Shown here: positions 1,295-9,068 of the stretch, one piece after another
How the letters are laid out: each line of letters starts with the position of its first letter
Position numbering within the stretch: the first letter of the stretch is position 1
IMG/VR virus record: IMGVR_UViG_2711768056_000012
Span: 1 to 12,778 of that record
DNA: 12,778 nt
Reading direction: 5' to 3' (one strand)
Origin: a virus
Lineage: Duplodnaviria > Heunggongvirae > Uroviricota > Caudoviricetes
Translations under genes and position numbers: made by a program
Notes under the pieces: generated by a model
The model's input: only the letters and a program-made list of their open reading frames with translations
Databases searched by the model: none
What the model was told of the DNA's origin: nothing

Positions 1295-2122
1295 TTATAG
1301 CTCCTTTAATCGAGGCGGTTCTGGTAGTGGCATCCAGTGTGACGGCTCACATACCCCCTCAACACCATTCATGTAAAAGAATTGAAATAACCCTTTACCT
1401 TTGTGAAACCCTACCATCTGCTCTTTTGTGTCTGAGCAATAAACCAAAACATCTTCTTCGTTCGGCATTCGCTCACTACAGCTTATCCAACCATCCGGAG
1501 TTACCGGAGAGTTGCCATTCACAAGGTCAGCTCGAACATATAGCGTGTCATCATGGTGCTGATTGTGGCTGCACCACGTTAATTCGCTTAACTCGCCATC
1601 TTCTGGCCATACTCCAGCCGTTTGCAGCCAGATATGGGCTGGCGCATCTTTGCAAGGTGTATTAACTGGCAACTTGTAAGTTTGGCTTACAGGTTCGGCA
1701 CCATGAAGCATGGCGTCGCTCCGCTCTATGCCATCCAGCGCGATTCGCAGTGCATGAATTGTGGTAGAGCTATCGTTTGGGGCTATTCCATATCGCTCGA
1801 ATACAGCTAAATGGTTGCGCATAATCTCAGGCGTAAGCTCTTTGTAAGCATAAGCAAGAGGCTCTGATGCATTATCCGGCACAACCGACGCAGGCGCGGC
1901 AGCATAAACAGGAATAACGTCCGGTTGCTCTTTATTGCTTTCATCCGTTAAAGCCCAGAATAATTTTCCAGCCGGATGTTTGAAAATATAAGCAACTGGA
2001 TCTGCTTCCAGCGATGCCAGTGCAATTTCATAAGCCCGGCGTTCAATATTGTCTCGAACGTCCAGGCTGCTGATACGCTCTTTGATTTCTTTAATCAGTT
2101 CTTTGTCGGTGAAAGTGGTCAT
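1295..2122 (-). CDS. phage protein with C-terminal DUF551-like domain, 275 aa
   Basis: ORF-track frame 1295..2245. Start taken at ATG 2122..2120 (MTTFTDKELIKEI...), preceded by AAAGGAGAG and abutting the upstream gene stop (TGA-T-ATG). The C-terminal stretch DGWISCSERMPNEEDVLVY...GFHKGKGLFQFFYMNGVEGVCEPSHWMPLPEPP resembles the DUF551 domain common in enterobacterial prophage early-left genes (recalled). Confidence 0.55.
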   Translation of the reverse strand: MTTFTDKELIKEIKERISSLDVRDNIERRAYEIALASLEADPVAYIFKHPAGKLFWALTDESNKEQPDVIPVYAAAPASVVPDNASEPLAYAYKELTPEIMRNHLAVFERYGIAPNDSSTTIHALRIALDGIERSDAMLHGAEPVSQTYKLPVNTPCKDAPAHIWLQTAGVWPEDGELSELTWCSHNQHHDDTLYVRADLVNGNSPVTPDGWISCSERMPNEEDVLVYCSDTKEQMVGFHKGKGLFQFFYMNGVEGVCEPSHWMPLPEPPRLKEL

Positions 2123-2123
2123 A

Positions 2124-2732
2124 TCACTCTCCTTTAATGCGAATGCCAGCGGCGCGGATAGATTTCCATTGTTTCCACATTCGGTTGAAGTCTGTGCCTG
2201 ATAAGGTTGCGTTACGGTATCCAGTTTCAGTACGCAATCCTTCAAGCGTCGATTTGGAGATACAAATTGAATGCATTACCCATGATTCAAACAAATCACG
2301 CTCCCGGGCTTCGCAACTTTGCTTACTCATCTCTTCGATACGTTCAGCCATCGCAGCACACTCTTCAAAGTTGCTTAATGCTTTTCGCTCCCATTCGGCG
2401 CATTGTTTTCCAAGCTCTGCAATCAGCTTGTCTTTGCCTTCCAGCTCAACACGCAGCTTCCCTACCGTTAGCGCAATATCCTCGTTCTCTTGGTCGCGGC
2501 GTTTGATGTATTGCTGGTTCCTTTCCCGTTCATCCAGTAGTGCCAAAGCAACCTTTGGATTAAAGGCAGCAATAAATTCAGCGTTGTTTTTCAGAACGTG
2601 TTGCGCAATGGCCTGACTACTTAGTCGGACCTCATAACCACGTGCGCCACGGTGTGGTTTATATGAGTCCCAGTCTCCCCACGTTGCTTTCTCTGCCGCC
2701 TCACGCAGTGCCTGGTAATTAATTTTGGTCAT
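2124..2732 (-). CDS. hypothetical phage protein, 202 aa, coiled-coil-rich (possibly Ea22-like)
   Basis: ORF 2124..2732, ATG 2732..2730. Stop abuts the next gene start. The central region is charged and heptad-like (LALLDERERNQQYIKRRDQENEDIALTVGKLRVELEGKDKLIAELGKQ). Ea22-like assignment is tentative. Confidence 0.5.
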   Translation of the reverse strand: MTKINYQALREAAEKATWGDWDSYKPHRGARGYEVRLSSQAIAQHVLKNNAEFIAAFNPKVALALLDERERNQQYIKRRDQENEDIALTVGKLRVELEGKDKLIAELGKQCAEWERKALSNFEECAAMAERIEEMSKQSCEARERDLFESWVMHSICISKSTLEGLRTETGYRNATLSGTDFNRMWKQWKSIRAAGIRIKGE

Positions 2733-2733
2733 A

Positions 2734-3033
2734 TCACATCACCCTGAAGCCGTTGCATTTACGTAAGAAATCGCAGATATAGCCTTTCATTTTTTCATGC
2801 CAATCTCGATCATTCCCATTGCACCAACCATCAGGTGGAGTCCAGTTTTCTATCAGAGCAGCCATTTTCTTTGCTTTCGCCGGAGTAGCTGTTGCGGTAT
2901 CGCAGTAATGACGAGTGTTAACCAACGCATCCATACCATCGATATCAAGTACGCAAAACCATGTGTGATTCGGCATTTCAACAGATGGTATTTGTTGCCC
3001 ACGTCGACGTTTATCAATAAGACATACAGTCAT
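2734..3033 (-). CDS. hypothetical protein, 99 aa
   Basis: ORF 2734..3033. Its ATG (3033..3031) overlaps the TGA (3032..3030) of the upstream gene in an ATGA arrangement, suggesting translational coupling. No recognised motif. Confidence 0.5.
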   Translation of the reverse strand: MTVCLIDKRRRGQQIPSVEMPNHTWFCVLDIDGMDALVNTRHYCDTATATPAKAKKMAALIENWTPPDGWCNGNDRDWHEKMKGYICDFLRKCNGFRVM

Positions 3034-3656
3034 GGTTCCACCTTCTCTATTTGCTTAAGACCGTCTCTCACTGCATTAAGTACGCGTTCCAGATACTGGT
3101 ATTTCGGGTTTGGTACCGTTGGCCAGTCGGCATACCACGGATCATCACCAAAGAGATTCAGCAGTTTGTTACCGACGCCGAAACAACAGCAGCTTTCTTT
3201 TACGTCATCGGCGTTTTCCGCCTCGTCCCACATTTCGCGAGCCTGTACCGCGTCGATTTCTCTCTCTCTTCGTAACTTTATGATTTCTGACTTCACGAAA
3301 AGCAGATTTGCATCGTTGTCATCGTCGACCGTGCTTCGCAGTTGAGGTTCGAAATAGCCGATTAGATACTCGTTGCTGACCCGCTTAATGAACGTCTGCA
3401 CATCATCACCGCCCATAGCAAACCAAGCCGCAGTCCACGCTTTTCCGTAGCAGGTGATGGTGATTCTTCCCTTACCAGGTTCGTAGTTTTCAATCATCAC
3501 TCGAACCGGATCTAGTCGCTCTGCACCGGTTATAACGAATGACAACACATCAATCTTTTCAACCGTTACACTCACTGTTTGCCTCCTTTGCTCGCTGATT
3601 CCACTCTGCTCTAACCTCTGAATAAAAAATCGCGCAGTCATTTCCAGGAGCTGCAT
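3030..3656 (-). CDS. hypothetical protein (about 208 aa; start uncertain)
   Basis: ORF-track frame 3030..3767 overlaps the Lar-like gene for over 200 nt at its 5' end. Candidate ATGs at 3656 and 3641 have only weak SDs; an in-frame GTG at 3548 just after the Lar stop is also possible. Contains an acidic patch (STVDDDNDANLLF) and a CCC motif. Confidence 0.45.
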   Translation of the reverse strand: MQLLEMTARFFIQRLEQSGISEQRRQTVSVTVEKIDVLSFVITGAERLDPVRVMIENYEPGKGRITITCYGKAWTAAWFAMGGDDVQTFIKRVSNEYLIGYFEPQLRSTVDDDNDANLLFVKSEIIKLRREREIDAVQAREMWDEAENADDVKESCCCFGVGNKLLNLFGDDPWYADWPTVPNPKYQYLERVLNAVRDGLKQIEKVEP

Positions 3657-3795
3657 ATTTGCTACCAGATTGAGCGCGACACGTACCGCATCGAACGAAA
3701 TAGAATCGACCGCCAGAGCCATATTCAGGGTGATCTGCTTCGCTGGCAACGTGCGCTGCACCGCCACAGAATGGACATGGTAGTAGGTTGCTCAT
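3559..3795 (-). CDS. lar: Lar-family restriction-alleviation-like protein, 78 aa
   Basis: Start taken at ATG 3795..3793 ([16 protein letters not shown]...), which overlaps the TGA of the upstream 186-aa gene (ATGA). The CPFCGG ... RCGTCRAQ zinc-ribbon-like pattern matches what I recall for the Lar family (Rac prophage Lar). Confidence 0.5.
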   Translation of the reverse strand: MSNLLPCPFCGGAAHVASEADHPEYGSGGRFYFVRCGTCRAQSGSKYAAPGNDCAIFYSEVRAEWNQRAKEANSECNG

Positions 3796-4352
3796 GAATG
3801 CACTCCCTTGTGAAGCTGTTCCGCACAATGCAGCAGGGCGTCAGTCGCCTCTTTCACCGTAACGCAGTCGCCATCGTCCAGCCCGGACACCGACGCGTGC
3901 TTAACGAACGCCGCGCAAAGGTCATCAAACGCCTTAGCCCGGACTTCAGTCAGGAAAGCATCGGTGGCTGGGGTGTCTGATTGTATATACTTTGCGCGAT
4001 AGTCATTCCACCCTCTTGCATACATGGGATTAACTTGCACTCCATCTTTTACGCAATATGCCTGCCCTCCACGGTTGATAACCTTGATTTCGTCCATAGC
4101 GCCAGACTTCAGACCCGCATTCTCCGCTGCCAGTGCCGAAAACTTCTCGTGTGCCAACTTAACAGCCGAATCAGCCTGCTTAATTGACTCAATCGCTTTC
4201 TGTTGGTCTTCGGCCAGCGCCAAAATCTTGGCCTCCGCTTCAGCAAATTTACGCACCAGATATTCAGCGTTTGTTTCGTTAACCTTTAAATCTCGTGGGA
4301 TGCATTTACCTTTCAGAAAACCATCCATCTCAATTAGTGACATTTGTTTCAT
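3792..4352 (-). CDS. hypothetical phage protein, 186 aa, N-terminal coiled-coil
   Basis: ORF 3792..4352. ATG 4352..4350 overlaps the TGA of the upstream small ORF (ATGA). N-terminal half is alanine/glutamate-rich and helical-looking ([45 protein letters not shown]). Confidence 0.55.
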
Positions 4353-4513
4353 TTCTTCCCACTCCGCAACATCGCATTAAGATATTTGTTGTCATTAACA
4401 GAACCGAAACTATTTCTCTTAAGCAATTCCTCTCTCGATGGCATTGGCTTTACGCGTTGGCGAATAATCATTTCTGCCGGAAGAATGCCGGGATTGTATG
4501 CAAGTCCTCTCAT
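4349..4513 (-). CDS. small hypothetical protein, 54 aa (start uncertain)
   Basis: Frame of the 4349..4663 ORF. The internal ATG at 4513..4511 (MRGLAYNPG...) is preceded by GAGGAA and avoids overlap with the 97-aa gene. Its stop overlaps the downstream ATG. Confidence 0.3.
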
Positions 4514-4523
4514 GGTAAATTCC

Positions 4524-4817
4524 TCAGTCATTACTGATAGCGCCATAGCGTGAGCGGTAATTACGCAGTCGCGGGTCAATTTCAGGGAAGTGGGTATATG
4601 TGGCTTTGCGGAATGGTCGGATTGATGTCTGGTAAATTCGCTCGCGTTCTTCTTTCTCTGCAAGCCATATACAATGGCGAAATTCCTTTTCCTCTTTCGT
4701 TTCCTGCGGTAGCGACATTATCAGGTCGTAGTTTTTTCTGAATTTATCCAGCACCTCCGATACGGAATTGCCGGAACAGCGGCGCGGGTCATCCGCACCA
4801 TACTGAGGCGCTGGCAT
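4524..4817 (-). CDS. hypothetical protein, 97 aa
   Basis: ORF 4524..4817 with ATG 4817..4815 preceded by a strong AGGAGAAAAT SD, immediately downstream of ssb. Charged and Arg-rich, no recognised motif. Confidence 0.5.
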
Positions 4818-4830
4818 GATTTTCTCCTGA

Positions 4831-5337
4831 TTAAATTGCGTGAATAGCGTGACGAGGGAAGGGGAGAGTTACTGGTGCAAAGGGTATATCGTCGTCAAAA
4901 TCCATCGGAGGTTCGTTGTGTTGTGCTGGTGATGATTGCTGCTGTGGCTTCTGTGATTGCCTGCTGGCTGCTTGTTGTTTGCTGTCGCCAATGCCGCCAA
5001 GCATCTGCATCACGCCATTAATTCCGACATGAACCTCGGTTGTGTAACGGTCTTGCCCTGACTGGTCTTTCCACTTTCTGGTTCTCAGCATTCCCTCGAA
5101 ATAAATCTGATCACCTTTTTTCACATACTGCCCCACGACCTCAGCCAGTTTCCCGGATACAGCAACACGATGCCATTCAGTCAATTCCTTTTGCTCGCCA
5201 GTATTTTTATCTCGCCATTGTTCTGACGTGGCTATTGTCAGGTTAGCGAACGCTGTTCCTGATGGTGAGTATCGAACTTCCGGGTCTTGTCCTACCCGAC
5301 CAAGGATAATCACCTTATTTACGCCTCTGCTTGCCAT
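4831..5337 (-). CDS. ssb: single-stranded DNA-binding protein (SSB), 168 aa
   Basis: Translation has a typical SSB OB-fold N-terminus ([44 protein letters not shown]...), a Gln/Pro/Gly-rich linker and the acidic C-terminal tail ending in DFDDDIPF, characteristic of bacterial and phage SSBs. Confidence 0.9.
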
Positions 5338-6045
5338 TTATGCCGCCTGTTTTAGTTCGTTAACTCTGATGTTCATTACCTGAACGCATTTAGCCTGCGC
5401 TTCCTCGTTGCCAGCCATTAATTGCCAGTCACGCTGATAACGCTCGATGAGTTTTTTCTTATCAGTTTCTTTCGATGCATAATCGCTGAAGTCTTTCAGG
5501 ATTTGTTCGCAGTCAACCGATGGAGATTTCTGGTTGGTATTTTCTGGTGATGGTTTGTTATCTGATGCTGGGATTGCCCAGCCGGGCAGCGTTGGAGGGA
5601 GCCAGTAAAACCCTGTTCCATCCTTCAGTTTTGCCCTGTGCCACCCCTGCTTTTTATCGAGAGATGTTTGTGCGAAACCTTCCTCAAGGTTATACAGATA
5701 CCGACCGATTCCCCATTGAACGGCAGCGCGCTTCATTGCACCGGAACGACCACCTTTGACGGCTTCTACTTGCGTGTTTTCAGCAGCATCCCATTTGGTT
5801 ACCCATTCGGAATCAATCTTGATTGATATGCCGCATTCAACTCCGCCGTTGTTGGGAATATCGCGGTATTCATTGCGCCATCCTGCTTTGCCGCAAACAT
5901 CGTCCAGGCGTTTCATGATTGCCCTGTTCGTGACATAAGCCAGCACCATAGCCCACACTTTTCCATCGCGTGTTTTACCGCTTTGCTGTATTCGCCATTC
6001 GATATCTTCAGGGCTGAATGGCTCATCGAATTTATTCAAATCCAT
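5338..6045 (-). CDS. Rad52-like single-strand annealing protein (Sak-type recombinase), 235 aa
   Basis: ORF 5338..6045 with ATG 6045..6043 and a GAGGTG SD. Stop TAA directly abuts the ssb ATG. The motif VKGGRSGAMKRAAVQWGIGRYLY resembles the conserved core of phage Rad52/Sak-family proteins (recalled). Occupies the position of lambda bet. Confidence 0.6.
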   Translation of the reverse strand: MDLNKFDEPFSPEDIEWRIQQSGKTRDGKVWAMVLAYVTNRAIMKRLDDVCGKAGWRNEYRDIPNNGGVECGISIKIDSEWVTKWDAAENTQVEAVKGGRSGAMKRAAVQWGIGRYLYNLEEGFAQTSLDKKQGWHRAKLKDGTGFYWLPPTLPGWAIPASDNKPSPENTNQKSPSVDCEQILKDFSDYASKETDKKKLIERYQRDWQLMAGNEEAQAKCVQVMNIRVNELKQAA

Positions 6046-6144: not shown

Positions 6145-6303
6145 TTATGGCGATACCAGAGAGCTTTCTGCGTGTACATGCGTCTCTGTAACTTGCTCTC
6201 CTTCACTGTGGTTGCAAGTAACATGAATATCTCCTTCGTTACCGATTAATTCTTTCATCTGACGAATGAATTCTTCGTCTGACCAGTTATCTGTAAAACT
6301 CAT
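6145..6303 (-). CDS. possible small ORF, 52 aa (speculative)
   Basis: Hand-translated from ATG 6303..6301, which overlaps the TGA of the Kil-like ORF: MSFTDNWSDEEFIRQMKELIGNEGDIHVTCNHSEGEQVTETHVHAESSLVSP. SD is too close to be convincing; expression would depend on coupling. Confidence 0.2.
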   Translation of the reverse strand: MSFTDNWSDEEFIRQMKELIGNEGDIHVTCNHSEGEQVTETHVHAESSLVSP

Positions 6304-6452
6304 TTCCTGCGATACCACGGAAGGTTGATAGCTGATTTCATCGCTTTATTTGCTTCAAGCCACATTTTTGAATCACCAATAAATCTGGCTATTACTGCTT
6401 TGTTCTGTGCAGCACGAAGCATCTGGTGATTAATGGCTATTTCATTGCGCAT
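6300..6452 (-). CDS. Kil-like small protein candidate, 50 aa (below ORF-track cutoff)
   Basis: Hand-translated from ATG 6452..6450, preceded by GGAGGCGTT at 5-nt spacing: MRNEIAINHQMLRAAQNKAVIARFIGDSKMWLEANKAMKSAINLPWYRRK. Lies immediately distal to cIII, where lambda has kil, and is of similar size. Assignment is by position and size only. Confidence 0.4.
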   Translation of the reverse strand: MRNEIAINHQMLRAAQNKAVIARFIGDSKMWLEANKAMKSAINLPWYRRK

Positions 6453-7032: not shown

Positions 7033-7096
7033 GTATCAGCTCTCAAATAATTGGTTTGCTGCCAAAACAATGAACCATCCGGAAATTCCAGATAGT

Positions 7097-7321
7097 TCAT
7101 AATTCACTCTTCAATACTTCCAGCTTACTAATCGCCGAAAGATATCCGCGCTGATAGGGCATCATCATTCCTTCGAGCTTGCCACTTCTTAACTCCTTCC
7201 TGAGCAATTGTATTGCTTGATCAATAACCTCTGACTTAGCGTCCTTTATGGCTTGCTTGCGGGGCTTTGCTTTCTGCTTTGGCAGATTTCTCAAGCATGA
7301 TGGAATGTATGTCTGATTCAT
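7097..7321 (-). CDS. hypothetical basic protein, 74 aa
   Basis: ORF-track frame 7097..7324 begins at GTG; the ATG at 7321..7319 is preceded by GAGGT at 6-nt spacing and lies directly after the N stop (TAA 7327..7325). Confidence 0.45.
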   Translation of the reverse strand: MNQTYIPSCLRNLPKQKAKPRKQAIKDAKSEVIDQAIQLLRKELRSGKLEGMMMPYQRGYLSAISKLEVLKSEL

Positions 7322-7324
7322 CAC

Positions 7325-7965: not shown

Positions 7966-8334
7966 TTAGTCAGCGAAGGTTAAGACGAGAATTACCTTAA
8001 TGATATCTGCTACAACAGACACGGCCATAGATAAACCAAAGACAATCCAAGCCATAGAGATGTCTTCACTACCATCGTATAGAGTTCCGTAATCACTGGT
8101 GTAAGGCGTAAATGTCGCGCCTTGATACAACAGGTATAAGCTTGAACCATAGAGGATAAATGCAGATATCCCTTGTATTGCTATGATCACTAGAATCATG
8201 AAACGAGCTGATCTATGCGCCCAAGCCTGGCTTATTTTTTCTGATAGAGATTTCGCAATAAAAGCATGCGCTAAGCCGTAAATTGTCGAGATTGCCAACA
8301 TCCCAAAAAAGCTTGCTATAGCGGTTCCAACCAT
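7966..8334 (-). CDS. small integral membrane protein in the rexAB-equivalent slot (candidate exclusion/abortive-infection protein), 122 aa
   Basis: ORF-track frame 7966..8355 begins at TTG; the ATG at 8334..8332 is preceded by AAGGGG and lies 17 nt downstream of the cI stop, consistent with co-transcription with cI. Three long hydrophobic segments separated by a basic loop (KSLSEKISQAWAHRSAR) and an acidic loop (TPYTSDYGTLYDGSEDIS). No similarity to lambda RexB that I can recognise. Confidence 0.6.
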   Translation of the reverse strand: MVGTAIASFFGMLAISTIYGLAHAFIAKSLSEKISQAWAHRSARFMILVIIAIQGISAFILYGSSLYLLYQGATFTPYTSDYGTLYDGSEDISMAWIVFGLSMAVSVVADIIKVILVLTFAD

Positions 8335-8351
8335 AATCGCCCCTTGCGTGA

Positions 8352-9068
8352 TCAAACCAGCCTTAGTTTTGTCTCAATTGCAACGCCTATAATCTTGCAG
8401 TTTCCATTGATTGGCACGAGAGGCCATGCAGGATTAAGTCCCTTGAGGTATTTATTTCCGCCGTCGATTATCAGCTTCTTGAATGTTGCTTCGTTAGAGT
8501 CAGAAAGTTTTGCTATGACCAAGCTGCCGTTGATCGCCTCCCTTCCGGTATCGAAAAGAACGAATGTTCCCTCTGGAATGCTTAACCCAACCGGTGCCGT
8601 CATTGAATCACCTTCCACTTTAAGCCAGAACGCATTACCTTGAATATGCGCGTCAGACTCAAGCCAAACATCTATGTCTTTAATGGTGTATGGTTCGCAT
8701 GCTTCACACCACGAGCCAGCCTGGATACTGCTTAACACCGGATACCTCTTTCCTGCTCTGTATTCCCCTGCATACCTTACGTTGGCATCGCTCTTAAGGC
8801 TTTCTGCCTGTTCTGCAACCTTGGCAGCAATTGACTGGCTAAAATCAGCAATTGAGACTTGCAACAGTCGTGCAAAACCAGATGCAACCTCAACGTTTAG
8901 CGCGTTTCTGCCATTAAGATAATGCCCTACCGCTCCTTGGGTGATACCCAGTTCATCAGCGATTGAGTATTGGGTTATCCCCAATTCTTTCTTTTTTGAC
9001 TCATACAAAGCCTTAAGCCGCTTAGCGTCTTCGAGCTGTTCTGTCGTCAGTGATTTTTTATTTTCCAT
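8352..9068 (-). CDS. cI: CI repressor (HTH DNA-binding domain plus LexA-like S24 autopeptidase domain), 238 aa
   Basis: N-terminus closely resembles lambda CI as recalled (KKSLTTEQLEDAKRLKALYESKKKELGITQYSIADELGITQGAVGHYLNGRNALN). C-terminal domain carries the Ala-Gly cleavage site (SIQAGSW), the catalytic Ser (EGDSMTAP) and Lys (TFKKLI). Divergent from cro across an operator region. Confidence 0.92.
   Translation of the reverse strand: MENKKSLTTEQLEDAKRLKALYESKKKELGITQYSIADELGITQGAVGHYLNGRNALNVEVASGFARLLQVSIADFSQSIAAKVAEQAESLKSDANVRYAGEYRAGKRYPVLSSIQAGSWCEACEPYTIKDIDVWLESDAHIQGNAFWLKVEGDSMTAPVGLSIPEGTFVLFDTGREAINGSLVIAKLSDSNEATFKKLIIDGGNKYLKGLNPAWPLVPINGNCKIIGVAIETKLRLV

Follow-up and report, generated by a model that had tools for sequence, protein, structure and literature searches.

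A probable 'ea'/exo-xis-type accessory segment in the early-left operon of an HK75-like lambdoid phage, with plausible counter-defence genes

The interval at positions 2734–4817 of the window (the whole stretch of viral DNA that was analysed, 12,778 nt) is an ordinary accessory stretch of an Escherichia coli lambda-like phage, of the sort that runs from the recombination genes to the excisionase gene. It belongs to a known kind of mosaic hotspot for counter-defence and host takeover, and is not a new system around its Lar-like protein. We assign a probability of about 0.75 to the fuller reading: a stretch of 'ea'/exo-xis-type accessory genes within the pL (early-left) operon of a lambdoid phage or prophage resembling HK75, with genes exchanged as cassettes and products that act independently. 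The leftward gene order is Abc2–DUF2737–EaE/YfdS/Oad2-family–Lar-family–phiTE_072-family–DUF7739 (Table 1). All six proteins are assignable to catalogued families, with near-identical copies annotated in RefSeq, although a characterised close relative is missing for four of the six. The neighbours of the Lar-like gene had been described as unrecognised in an earlier note on this DNA; each falls in a catalogued family (Abc2, DUF2737, YfdS/EaE, phiTE_072/PF26211 and DUF7739).

Table 1. Features of the accessory block, the next downstream gene and two inter-module joints in the window.
Feature	Positions	Strand	Length	Details
ORF A, abc2, anti-RecBCD protein 2	4524..4817	-	97 aa	Own ribosome-binding site, 13 nt past ssb stop
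ORF B, DUF2737 small basic protein	4349..4513	-	54 aa	pI 10.7; start 10 nt beyond abc2 stop
ORF C, EaE/YfdS/Oad2-family modular protein	3792..4352	-	186 aa	ATGA-coupled at both ends
Diverged joint copy at ORF C/Lar junction	3792..3818	-		CAGCTTCACAAGGGAGTGCATTCATGA; encodes EQLHKGVHS-stop
ORF D, Lar-family C4 zinc-ribbon protein	3559..3795	-	78 aa	CPFC 7-10, CGTC 36-39
Conserved inter-module joint	3571..3591	-	21 nt	GCAAAGGAGGCAAACAGTGAG; ribosome-binding site AAGGAGG and GTG start of downstream gene
ORF E, phiTE_072-family (PF26211) acidic protein	3030..3575	-	181 aa	GTG start at 3575
ORF F, DUF7739 protein	2734..3033	-	99 aa	ATGA-coupled to ORF E; sixth block member
Ead/Ea22-like coiled-coil protein	2124..2732	-	202 aa	Next downstream gene; Pfam PF13935, 100.9 bits

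The block lies distally in the early-left region, with a Rad52/Erf–SSB recombination module on one side and the excisionase gene on the other, and no terminator-like site was found on the minus (coding) strand from 6604 to 2012; the lambdoid early-left location proposed in the earlier note is borne out. That note had also described five leftward ORFs joined by overlapping stop and start codons. The ORFs of 97, 54, 186 and 78 aa exist as described, whereas the fifth is 181 aa long from a GTG start and not about 208 aa. ATGA overlaps are present at 4349–4352, 3792–3795 and 3030–3033, but the abc2 stop and the DUF2737 start are 10 nt apart without overlap, and the junction between the Lar-like gene and ORF E is a 17-nt overlap. 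The ATGA at 3030–3033 links ORF E to a sixth gene, encoding the DUF7739 protein, that had not been counted. Each start has its own ribosome-binding site, and the whole leftward operon is tightly packed (neighbouring genes repeatedly overlap by 1, 4 or 16 nt or are separated by 0 or +1 nt); close packing is no peculiarity of the six-gene block. Repeats in 2000–5400 are limited to short matches at chance level. We infer that the block genes are co-transcribed, the anatomy pointing to a single long transcript, probably N-antiterminated, from the recombination module to xis. The ribosome-binding site of each cistron would sit within the 3' end of the gene before it, and translation is probably coupled across cistrons, because stop codons overlap or almost abut the start codons that follow. 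The products themselves would function separately rather than as a single machine.

Corresponding segments are known from other lambdoid phages. The 'ea' region of P22 (abc2–orf56–eaE–orf45–eaF–eaD–eaI–eaA–eaG–eaC–xis) and the exo-xis regions of lambda and Stx phages occupy the same position in the pL operon as the block, between the recombination genes and xis. P22 resembles the window in its first three slots (abc2, a DUF2737 gene and an EaE-type gene), in the Ead/Ea22-like, DUF551 and Ea8.5-related genes downstream, in tight packing and in mosaicism, but lacks the Lar-family, phiTE_072-family and DUF7739 genes of the window. The Rad52/Erf and SSB recombination module of the window is like that of HK75 and, unlike that of P22, is without abc1 or arf. 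In HK75 and HK446, the order is abc2–DUF2737–EaE-like–(DUF7739)–xis, and identities to these phages are high (SSB 100%, Erf 98.7%, Abc2 and DUF2737 98%, DUF7739 92%). By comparison with HK75, the Lar-like gene and ORF E appear to have been inserted where the EaE-like gene would otherwise adjoin the DUF7739 gene. As it stands, the locus is routine lambdoid-phage anatomy.

ORF A is identified by profile and sequence matches as Abc2, a family with a structurally characterised RecBCD-binding member. It matches Pfam PF11043 (Anti-RecBCD_p2) with 213 bits against a cut-off of 25 (residues 1–97 on profile positions 1–97; phrog_656) and the 'Anti-RecBCD protein 2' of PDB 8b1t/8b1u with E 2e-58, again residues 1–97 on 1–97. 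All 97 residues align with P22 Abc2 at 94% identity, and identity to HK446 gp30 is 98%; between the P22 protein of these structures and ORF A there is no material difference, and both genes adjoin genes for single-strand annealing and SSB proteins. On the strength of this identity, ORF A would bind RecC and redirect RecBCD, as shown for the family. ORF B matches Pfam PF10930 (DUF2737; 106.8 bits against a cut-off of 25; phrog_1117), and is 98% identical to HK446 gp28 and HK75 gp29; its P22 counterpart is orf56.

ORF C (phrog_614, E 1e-57) has at least 8000 homologues, among which modules are shuffled. It comprises an N-terminal module (residues 1–42), a coiled coil, a conserved centre (72–138) and a variable C-terminal module ending in EQLHKGVHS. 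ORF C is 63% identical to a RefSeq 'YfdS family phage-associated protein', 42% identical to HK75 gp28, and 39% identical (E 2e-34) to HK446 gp27 (Oad2), which occupies the same slot after DUF2737; an EaE-like gene lies directly downstream of the DUF2737 gene in HK446, HK75, HF4s and two further loci. The likeness to Oad2 resides mainly in the first 42 residues, which are nearly identical, and in short motifs (a 13-residue motif and a QLxKG C-terminus), whereas the coiled coil, central domain and C-terminal module are all different. The match to P22 EaE is weak (46% over 37 aa). The AF2 model of ORF C is poor (pLDDT 60, pTM 0.26), and a fold search was therefore unjustified. A Pfam profile search with ORF C gave no family match, PF13935 included, and an assignment as an Ead/Ea22-like (PF13935) protein was rejected, BLASTP against the window's own Ead/Ea22-like protein giving E 2.7. 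Membership of phrog_368 is common to these two proteins and is the sole link between them.

Oad2 binds the abortive tRNase OLD of P2, whose activity it inhibits in vitro, and relieves the toxicity of OLD in cells deficient in recB; HK75 gp28, which is 54% identical to Oad2, does not inhibit OLD (bioRxiv 10.64898/2026.07.10.737580). Because a homologue as close as 54% is inactive, OLD inhibition is not to be assumed for ORF C at 39% identity. By analogy with Oad2, ORF C would most likely bind and block a host or prophage immune protein via its variable C-terminal half, and the target need not be OLD. The phage also encodes a Gp33-type protein (6145–6303), a reported OLD trigger, and the presence of this protein alongside a divergent Oad2-family protein in one phage makes a direct trigger/inhibitor test possible.

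As judged by family assignment, two or three of the block genes belong to families in which some members are known or suspected to counter defence. An anti-defence reading of the block is plausible, and is in part already published: the neighbourhood has been described as a counter-defence hotspot (10.1101/2023.04.06.535777; bioRxiv 10.64898/2026.07.10.737580), and the region adjacent to abc2 has been treated as an accessory region with counter-defence genes. Sequences of the block proteins were absent from the supplementary tables of an accessory-gene screen (PMC12373910). We regard as possible, but tentative, a more specific form of this reading, by which at least one of the DUF2737, phiTE_072-family and DUF7739 proteins (the phiTE_072-family protein being the best candidate) is an uncharacterised immune-system inhibitor, and/or ORF C is a new Oad2-family specificity variant, directed against a defence, OLD-type or another, that detects the phage's own Gp33-like and Abc2 recombination proteins. 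The value of the locus lies in a short, well-delimited counter-defence screen list of six small early genes, three of them without known function; annotation mentions but no functional study were found in the literature on DUF2737, DUF7739, PF26211 and Lar-like proteins. Searches of PDB by sequence and profile with ORFs B, C, D, E and F gave nothing significant, and no fold match for ORF E.

The position of the block, and its Ea22-like, Ea8.5-related and DUF551 neighbours, are those of an exo-xis region, and exo-xis genes of lambda and Stx phages have been reported to shift the lysis–lysogeny decision, rather than to counter defence: Ea22 is reported to be pro-lysogeny, and other genes of the region affect lysogenisation and induction (PMC7093339, PMC3824215, PMC10834534). 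The products could then be mainly modulators of development or host physiology (the lysis–lysogeny decision, prophage induction or the host cell cycle), a reading that is compatible with the main one and that we consider unlikely. Abc2 and Oad2 argue against it as direct precedents for counter-defence or RecBCD manipulation in the exact same slot, as do homologues of ORF E in strictly virulent Vequintavirinae phages, which have no lysogeny decision.

The Lar motif of ORF D is, on profile evidence, beyond chance. Membership of the Lar family, suggested in the earlier note from the zinc-ribbon pattern, is upheld by Pfam PF14354 (38.5 bits against a cut-off of 28.6; E 1.4e-9; profile positions 2–58 of 58) but not by the NCBIfam model TIGR03655 (anti_R_Lar), for which the score of 29.8 bits is under the cut-off of 39.6. 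PF14354 is carried by 15 of 15 close homologues, and the near-identical RefSeq protein (WP_071703549.1) is named 'Lar family restriction alleviation protein'. Across 148 family members there is no variation at C7, C10, C36, C39 or W65, and in an alignment that includes RalR these positions and R68 are likewise invariant. The function of the family founder, Rac Lar (E. coli K-12 b1348), is itself disputed between restriction alleviation (King and Murray, 1995, as cited in PMC4041452) and a DNase toxin: the gene is now annotated ralR, 'endodeoxyribonuclease toxin', and RalR is reported to cut methylated and unmethylated DNA (PMC4041452). The name 'Lar' is, by sequence comparison, a weak functional anchor for ORF D, which by analogy with Rac Lar may alleviate type IA restriction, weakly inferred as this is.

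That ORF D is instead a RalR-type DNase toxin, possibly one half of a type I toxin–antitoxin pair, would agree with the present annotation of Rac lar and the reported cleavage of DNA, and with a shared core. Both proteins match PF14354 and have a C4 zinc ribbon (PCPFCG ... CxxC) followed by an E..W.N.R helix, and both genes lie between the recombination genes and xis of a lambdoid phage or prophage. We nevertheless judge this very unlikely. ORF D and Rac Lar share only 26% identity across 42 aa, their alignment containing two insertions of 8–9 residues; 119 of the 147 best representatives are proteins of more than 100 aa in which the domain forms the N-terminal portion; and the gene is in the middle of an operon on the lytic early transcript. 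An Rfam scan of the window gave no family match (the presence of a RalA model in Rfam being unconfirmed), and the opposite (plus) strand showed no promoter-like site in 2700–4830.

Comparison across genomes shows that the genes are swapped as cassettes through recombination at short conserved joints, of which the clearest is the 21-nt joint of ribosome-binding site and GTG start between the Lar-like gene and ORF E. This joint is invariant in a five-way alignment in which upstream or downstream genes differ, and occurs as one exact copy per locus in seven loci, two of these copies being at the 3' ends of HK446 gp27 and HK75 gp28. It is present in at least 120 IMG/VR contigs and links, among the matches listed, at least 8 upstream with at least 10 downstream module clusters in at least 23 combinations, figures that are lower bounds from a scan pattern derived from the same loci that it counts. 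The diverged copy at the junction of ORF C and the Lar-like gene is the sole match in the window to a degenerate joint pattern (0 expected by chance), and corresponds to the ...QLRKGGNQ-stop C-termini of EaE-like proteins. The 21-nt joint is like the boundary sequences of lambdoid phages, for which a mechanism of mosaic joint formation is proposed in references 21 and 22 as cited in PMC3029335, in being short, shared by otherwise unrelated gene pairs, and located exactly at a module border. Unlike boundary sequences at large, it is also a ribosome-binding site and start codon, and in EaE-like and DUF2737-like proteins it additionally encodes the C-terminal ...RKGGNQ-stop motif. Translation-coupling junctions would be the same sites as gene-shuffling recombination joints here, on which account EaE-like and some DUF2737-like proteins share the ...RKGGNQ C-terminus, and gene callers mis-extend downstream genes. 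Cassette exchange at these joints makes the combination rare, though each part is common: at least 80% of 2700–4830 occurs in one place in 3 of 5426 E. coli genomes and in no phage record.

A coordinated, translationally coupled anti-restriction system centred on the Lar-like protein, with its neighbours as novel partners, is highly improbable against this background. The ATGA or 17-nt overlaps at four junctions, the score of ORF D above the Pfam cut-off, and the presence of the whole block at 94–96% identity in two or three E. coli genomes would fit such a unit, as the earlier note had conceived it. Of the 139 E. coli genomes with this Lar allele or ORF E, however, only 2 have the Lar-like gene and ORF E contiguous; in the other 137 they are apart, the matches breaking exactly at their junction, on the 21-nt joint. 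Elsewhere, the Lar-like gene is followed by Ead/Ea22-like genes (as in HF4s and RM13745), and ORF E comes after YfdS-like, DUF2737 or unrelated genes. Tight overlaps extend throughout the operon, and PADLOC models gave no match to eight ORFs, nor was there another system-level signature.

Homologues of ORF E range across temperate lambdoid phages, SSU5-type phage-plasmids, virulent Vequintavirinae, and Pseudomonas and Vibrio phages, and in SSU5, phiTE and Pseudomonas phage 8P its gene neighbourhoods are unrelated. ORF E resembles phiTE gp072 and relatives over its full length, with 41% identity to phiTE over 97% of the query (tblastn, E 4e-31); homologues carry precomputed PF26211 matches, and near-identical RefSeq proteins are named 'phiTE_072 family protein'. 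ORF E had no match in the Pfam and NCBIfam copies used, which presumably lack the PF26211 model. ORF F matches Pfam PF24881 (75.9 bits against a cut-off of 27; phrog_1239) and is 92% identical to HK75 gp27. The GTG at 3575 lies 6 nt past the ribosome-binding site AAGGAGG; homologues begin M-x-(I/V)-x-V-E-K, the RefSeq call is also 181 aa, and DNA identity stops 16 nt upstream of this GTG where the upstream neighbour of ORF E differs. The 208-aa and 245-aa readings are in an alternative frame that runs across the Lar-like gene. A fusion or conserved pair of Lar and ORF E, prompted by a phrog_3451 match confined to profile positions 104–282 of 287, was rejected because the long forms result from start miscalls in an alternative frame or from N-terminal extensions that are unrelated, and because the two genes assort independently. 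There is a negligible chance that the overlapping ORFs are one gene misframed through sequencing error, as the earlier note had allowed for and as the 245-aa frame running on into ORF E and occasional fused gene calls might suggest, since every ORF matches its own family end to end, the ORFs are found separately in many genomes, homologues of ORF E start at the GTG, and the five-way alignment agrees. The record of phage HF4s contains the same start miscall, deposited as a 270-aa 'EaD protein'.

The window spans early-region DNA from a lambdoid phage or prophage of E. coli, with the accessory block following SSB in the leftward operon. In no phage record does coverage of the window exceed 43%, and the recombination module is close to those of HK75 and HK446 (identity 100% for SSB, 98.7% for Erf, and 98% for Abc2). 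The block would be co-transcribed from pL, as supported by the finding of no terminator-like site on the coding strand from 6604 to 2012, and translational coupling between its genes appears probable. The strongest terminator-like hairpin of the early-left operon has a 14-bp stem with a T run behind it; it overlaps the stop codon of a 75-aa ORF and extends into the spacer past it, a position that fits an N-suppressible early terminator. On the cI strand, the gene directly downstream of cI encodes a predicted membrane protein of 129 aa, which matches phrog_6534 (function unknown) but has no Pfam family. Lambda has rexA/rexB in this slot, and the gene is a candidate for exclusion or defence expressed from the prophage. 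The listed 316-aa reading of the DUF551 gene, from a TTG, overlaps the Ead/Ea22-like gene; because family matches begin only near residue 40–42, the likely start is the ATG at 2122, 1 nt past the upstream stop.

Features of the early region and accessory block (window coordinates)
Feature	Position	Strand or direction	Remark
cI-type repressor	8352–9068	rightward	
cro/cII-like genes, replication O-like gene, primase-helicase		rightward	
129-aa membrane protein	7966–8355	(−)	
75-aa ORF	7097–7324		
Terminator-like hairpin	7070–7100	(−)	
N-like gene		leftward	
Kil	6300–6452	leftward	
Gp33 homologue	6145–6303	(−)	
Rad52/Erf-type annealing protein	5338–6045	leftward	
SSB	4831–5337	leftward	block follows
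ORF A, Abc2	4524–4817	leftward	block
ORF B, DUF2737	4349–4513	leftward	block
ORF C, EaE/YfdS/Oad2 family	3792–4352	leftward	block
ORF D, Lar-like zinc ribbon	3559–3795	leftward	block
Alternative frame	3575–3767	(−)	
Joint	3571–3591	(−)	GCAAAGGAGGCRAMCAGTGAG; 21 nt, ribosome-binding site and downstream gene's GTG start
ORF E, phiTE_072 family	3030–3575	leftward	block
ORF F, DUF7739	2734–3033	leftward	block
Ead/Ea22-like gene	2124–2732	leftward	beyond block
DUF551 gene	1295–2122	leftward (−)	beyond block
Ea8.5-related zinc-binding protein (PF20735)	899–1198	(−)	beyond block
AlpA/excisionase-like gene	1–192	leftward	beyond block

The sequence shows the gene order, family memberships, and junction geometry of the block, the independent assortment of its genes, and the shared joint. 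An earlier note described five ORFs joined by overlapping stop and start codons; its sizes for the four smaller ORFs and all three ATGA overlaps are confirmed, whereas a 10-nt gap separates the Abc2 and DUF2737 genes, and the fifth, ORF E, is 181 aa rather than about 208 aa. From ssb on, the junctions are a 13-nt gap, a 10-nt gap, ATGA, ATGA, a 17-nt overlap, ATGA, and a 1-nt gap; the last ATGA couples ORF E to a sixth gene of the same packed run, assigned to DUF7739 by Pfam. Tight packing goes on through the remainder of the leftward operon, and is an operon-wide property, not peculiar to the block.

ORF E starts at GTG 3575, 6 nt past an AAGGAGG ribosome-binding site, where its homologues begin M-x-(I/V)-x-V-E-K; it is annotated as 181 aa in RefSeq, and in genomes with another gene upstream of it, nucleotide identity ends 16 nt upstream of this GTG. 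The 208-aa and 245-aa readings were rejected as an alternative frame that is by chance open across the Lar gene. This frame is open over the whole Lar-like gene and enters the downstream gene, resulting in the 245-aa ORF here, a 270-aa “EaD protein” deposited for phage HF4s (L003 2385–3197 (−)), and several automated gene calls mis-extended likewise (230–282 aa).

The Lar-centred unit proposed earlier does not hold, the genes instead assorting independently. Of 5426 complete E. coli genomes, 1723 contain some part of 2700–4830, but at least 80% of it lies at one place in only 3 of them and in no phage record. A query of the Lar-like gene plus ORF E matches 139 genomes, with both contiguous in two; ORF E matches stop at query position 562 and Lar matches start at 538–542, so that the two sets share only ~21 nt, at the junction. 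In other loci, Ead/Ea22-like genes come directly after the Lar-like gene, and ORF E is preceded by a YfdS-like or RelA/SpoT-like gene or by small unrelated ORFs. Because the order in HK75 is abc2, DUF2737, EaE-like gene, DUF7739, xis, the Lar-like gene and ORF E appear to have entered as cassettes between the EaE-like gene and DUF7739.

The sequence at these module borders is the 21-nt joint; GCAAAGGAGGC(A/G)A(A/C)CAGTGAG is invariant in a five-way alignment of junctions with otherwise unrelated flanks. In one frame the joint codes for ...RKGGNQ*, the C-terminus typical of EaE-like proteins and of some DUF2737-like ones, and the TGA overlaps the GTG; the Lar-like gene reads it in another frame, and its stop therefore falls 17 nt later. 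The joint occurs exactly once per locus in seven of seven loci (L001, L002, L003, L008, L009, L012, and L013), with HK446 gp27 and HK75 gp28 carrying it at their 3′ ends, and in at least 120 IMG/VR contigs (L014–L093 and further loci). Among the matches listed, a sample biased by a search pattern taken from these same loci, 129 occurrences combine at least 8 upstream with at least 10 downstream clusters in 23 distinct combinations; upstream partners in these matches include EaE/Oad2-like, DUF2737, and Lar-like genes, and downstream partners Ead/Ea22-like, phiTE_072, and DUF7739 genes, among others. At the ORF C/Lar junction lies a diverged copy of the joint. The joint fits the established idea that mosaic joints have short, conserved sequences at their boundaries (PMC3029335).

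The neighbours of the Lar-like gene, previously taken as unrecognised proteins, all belong to catalogued families, and of the proposed anti-defence locus it is a plausible counter-defence hotspot that stands, not a Lar-centred system: Abc2 is the one certain member, ORF C a family-level candidate, and the Lar-like ORF a weak one. What is new is this combination; the modules and the kind of region are already known. Equivalent exo–xis genes of lambda and Stx phages reportedly affect lysogenisation and induction. In P22-like phages, the surroundings of abc1/abc2 have already been treated as a counter-defence-bearing accessory region in an accessory-gene screen (10.1101/2023.04.06.535777).

Abc2 matches Pfam PF11043 (213 bits) and, end to end, PDB 8b1t (“Anti-RecBCD protein 2”); RecBCD binding is established for the family. 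The counterpart of the DUF2737 protein is P22 orf56. DUF2737 adjoins an EaE/YfdS-type gene in three comparison loci (L002 3861–4815; L012 2492–3557; L013 2043–2686), yet L002 has RecT and Gp157 in place of the recombination module and lacks abc2; thus, the conserved pair may be DUF2737 and the EaE-like gene rather than DUF2737 and Abc2.

ORF C has no Pfam match and belongs to a large modular family (at least 8000 relatives; “EaE” in some phages, “YfdS family” in RefSeq) in which the N-terminal 42 residues and the centre are conserved, a coiled coil is optional, and the C-terminal modules are exchangeable. A July 2026 preprint reports that HK446 gp27, named Oad2 and related to P22 EaE, binds and inhibits the abortive tRNase P2 OLD, that the HK75 homologue (54% identical to Oad2) does not inhibit OLD, and that OLD is triggered by Gp33, a protein of 56 aa encoded between erf and kil (10.64898/2026.07.10.737580). 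HK446 gp27 directly follows the DUF2737 gene, the slot of ORF C; the two are 39% identical (E 2e-34), and most of the similarity falls within the N-terminal module and a pair of short motifs. ORF C may inhibit some immune protein by binding it directly, its variable half setting the specificity. The window also encodes a homologue of HK75/HK446 Gp33 (PHROGs label “recombinase”), which equals HK75 Gp33 through ...ETHVHA and then has a shorter C-terminus (ESSLVSP vs. AGVNVSPEGRS in HK75).

For ORF D, a C4 zinc ribbon, the earlier assignment to the Lar family agrees with Pfam Lar_restr_allev (38.5 vs. 28.6 bits), but not with the narrower NCBIfam anti_R_Lar model (29.8 vs. 39.6). ORF D keeps the PCPFCG, CxxC, and C-terminal E..W.N.R helix of Rac Lar, with two insertions (26% identity over 42 residues, BLASTP). 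Because the Rac founder gene of the family is now annotated as ralR, an endodeoxyribonuclease toxin whose antitoxin is an sRNA (PMC4041452), “Lar-like” is a weak functional label; ORF D might conceivably act on type I restriction-modification. A profile of its close relatives finds 1463 cluster representatives (E ≤1e-3). All of the best 147 (P0256–P0402) match PF14354, and 119 of them exceed 100 aa (median 137), with an N-terminal Lar-type zinc ribbon and tails without a Pfam family; this leaves stand-alone 64–78-aa forms, Rac Lar and ORF D among them, in the minority and hints at an adaptor-type module. Two zinc-ribbon proteins among these 147 have DUF551 tails.

ORF E is acidic (pI 4.6), and its family (phiTE_072/PF26211) is spread over lambdoid prophages, SSU5-type phage-plasmids, virulent Vequintavirinae, and Pseudomonas and Vibrio phages. 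A moderate-confidence model of ORF E gave no informative structural neighbour. In the Salmonella phage-plasmid SSU5 (L005 1863–3052), an ATGA overlap couples the ORF E homologue to an annotated guanosine polyphosphate pyrophosphohydrolase/synthetase gene, a neighbour quite unlike those in lambdoid prophages.
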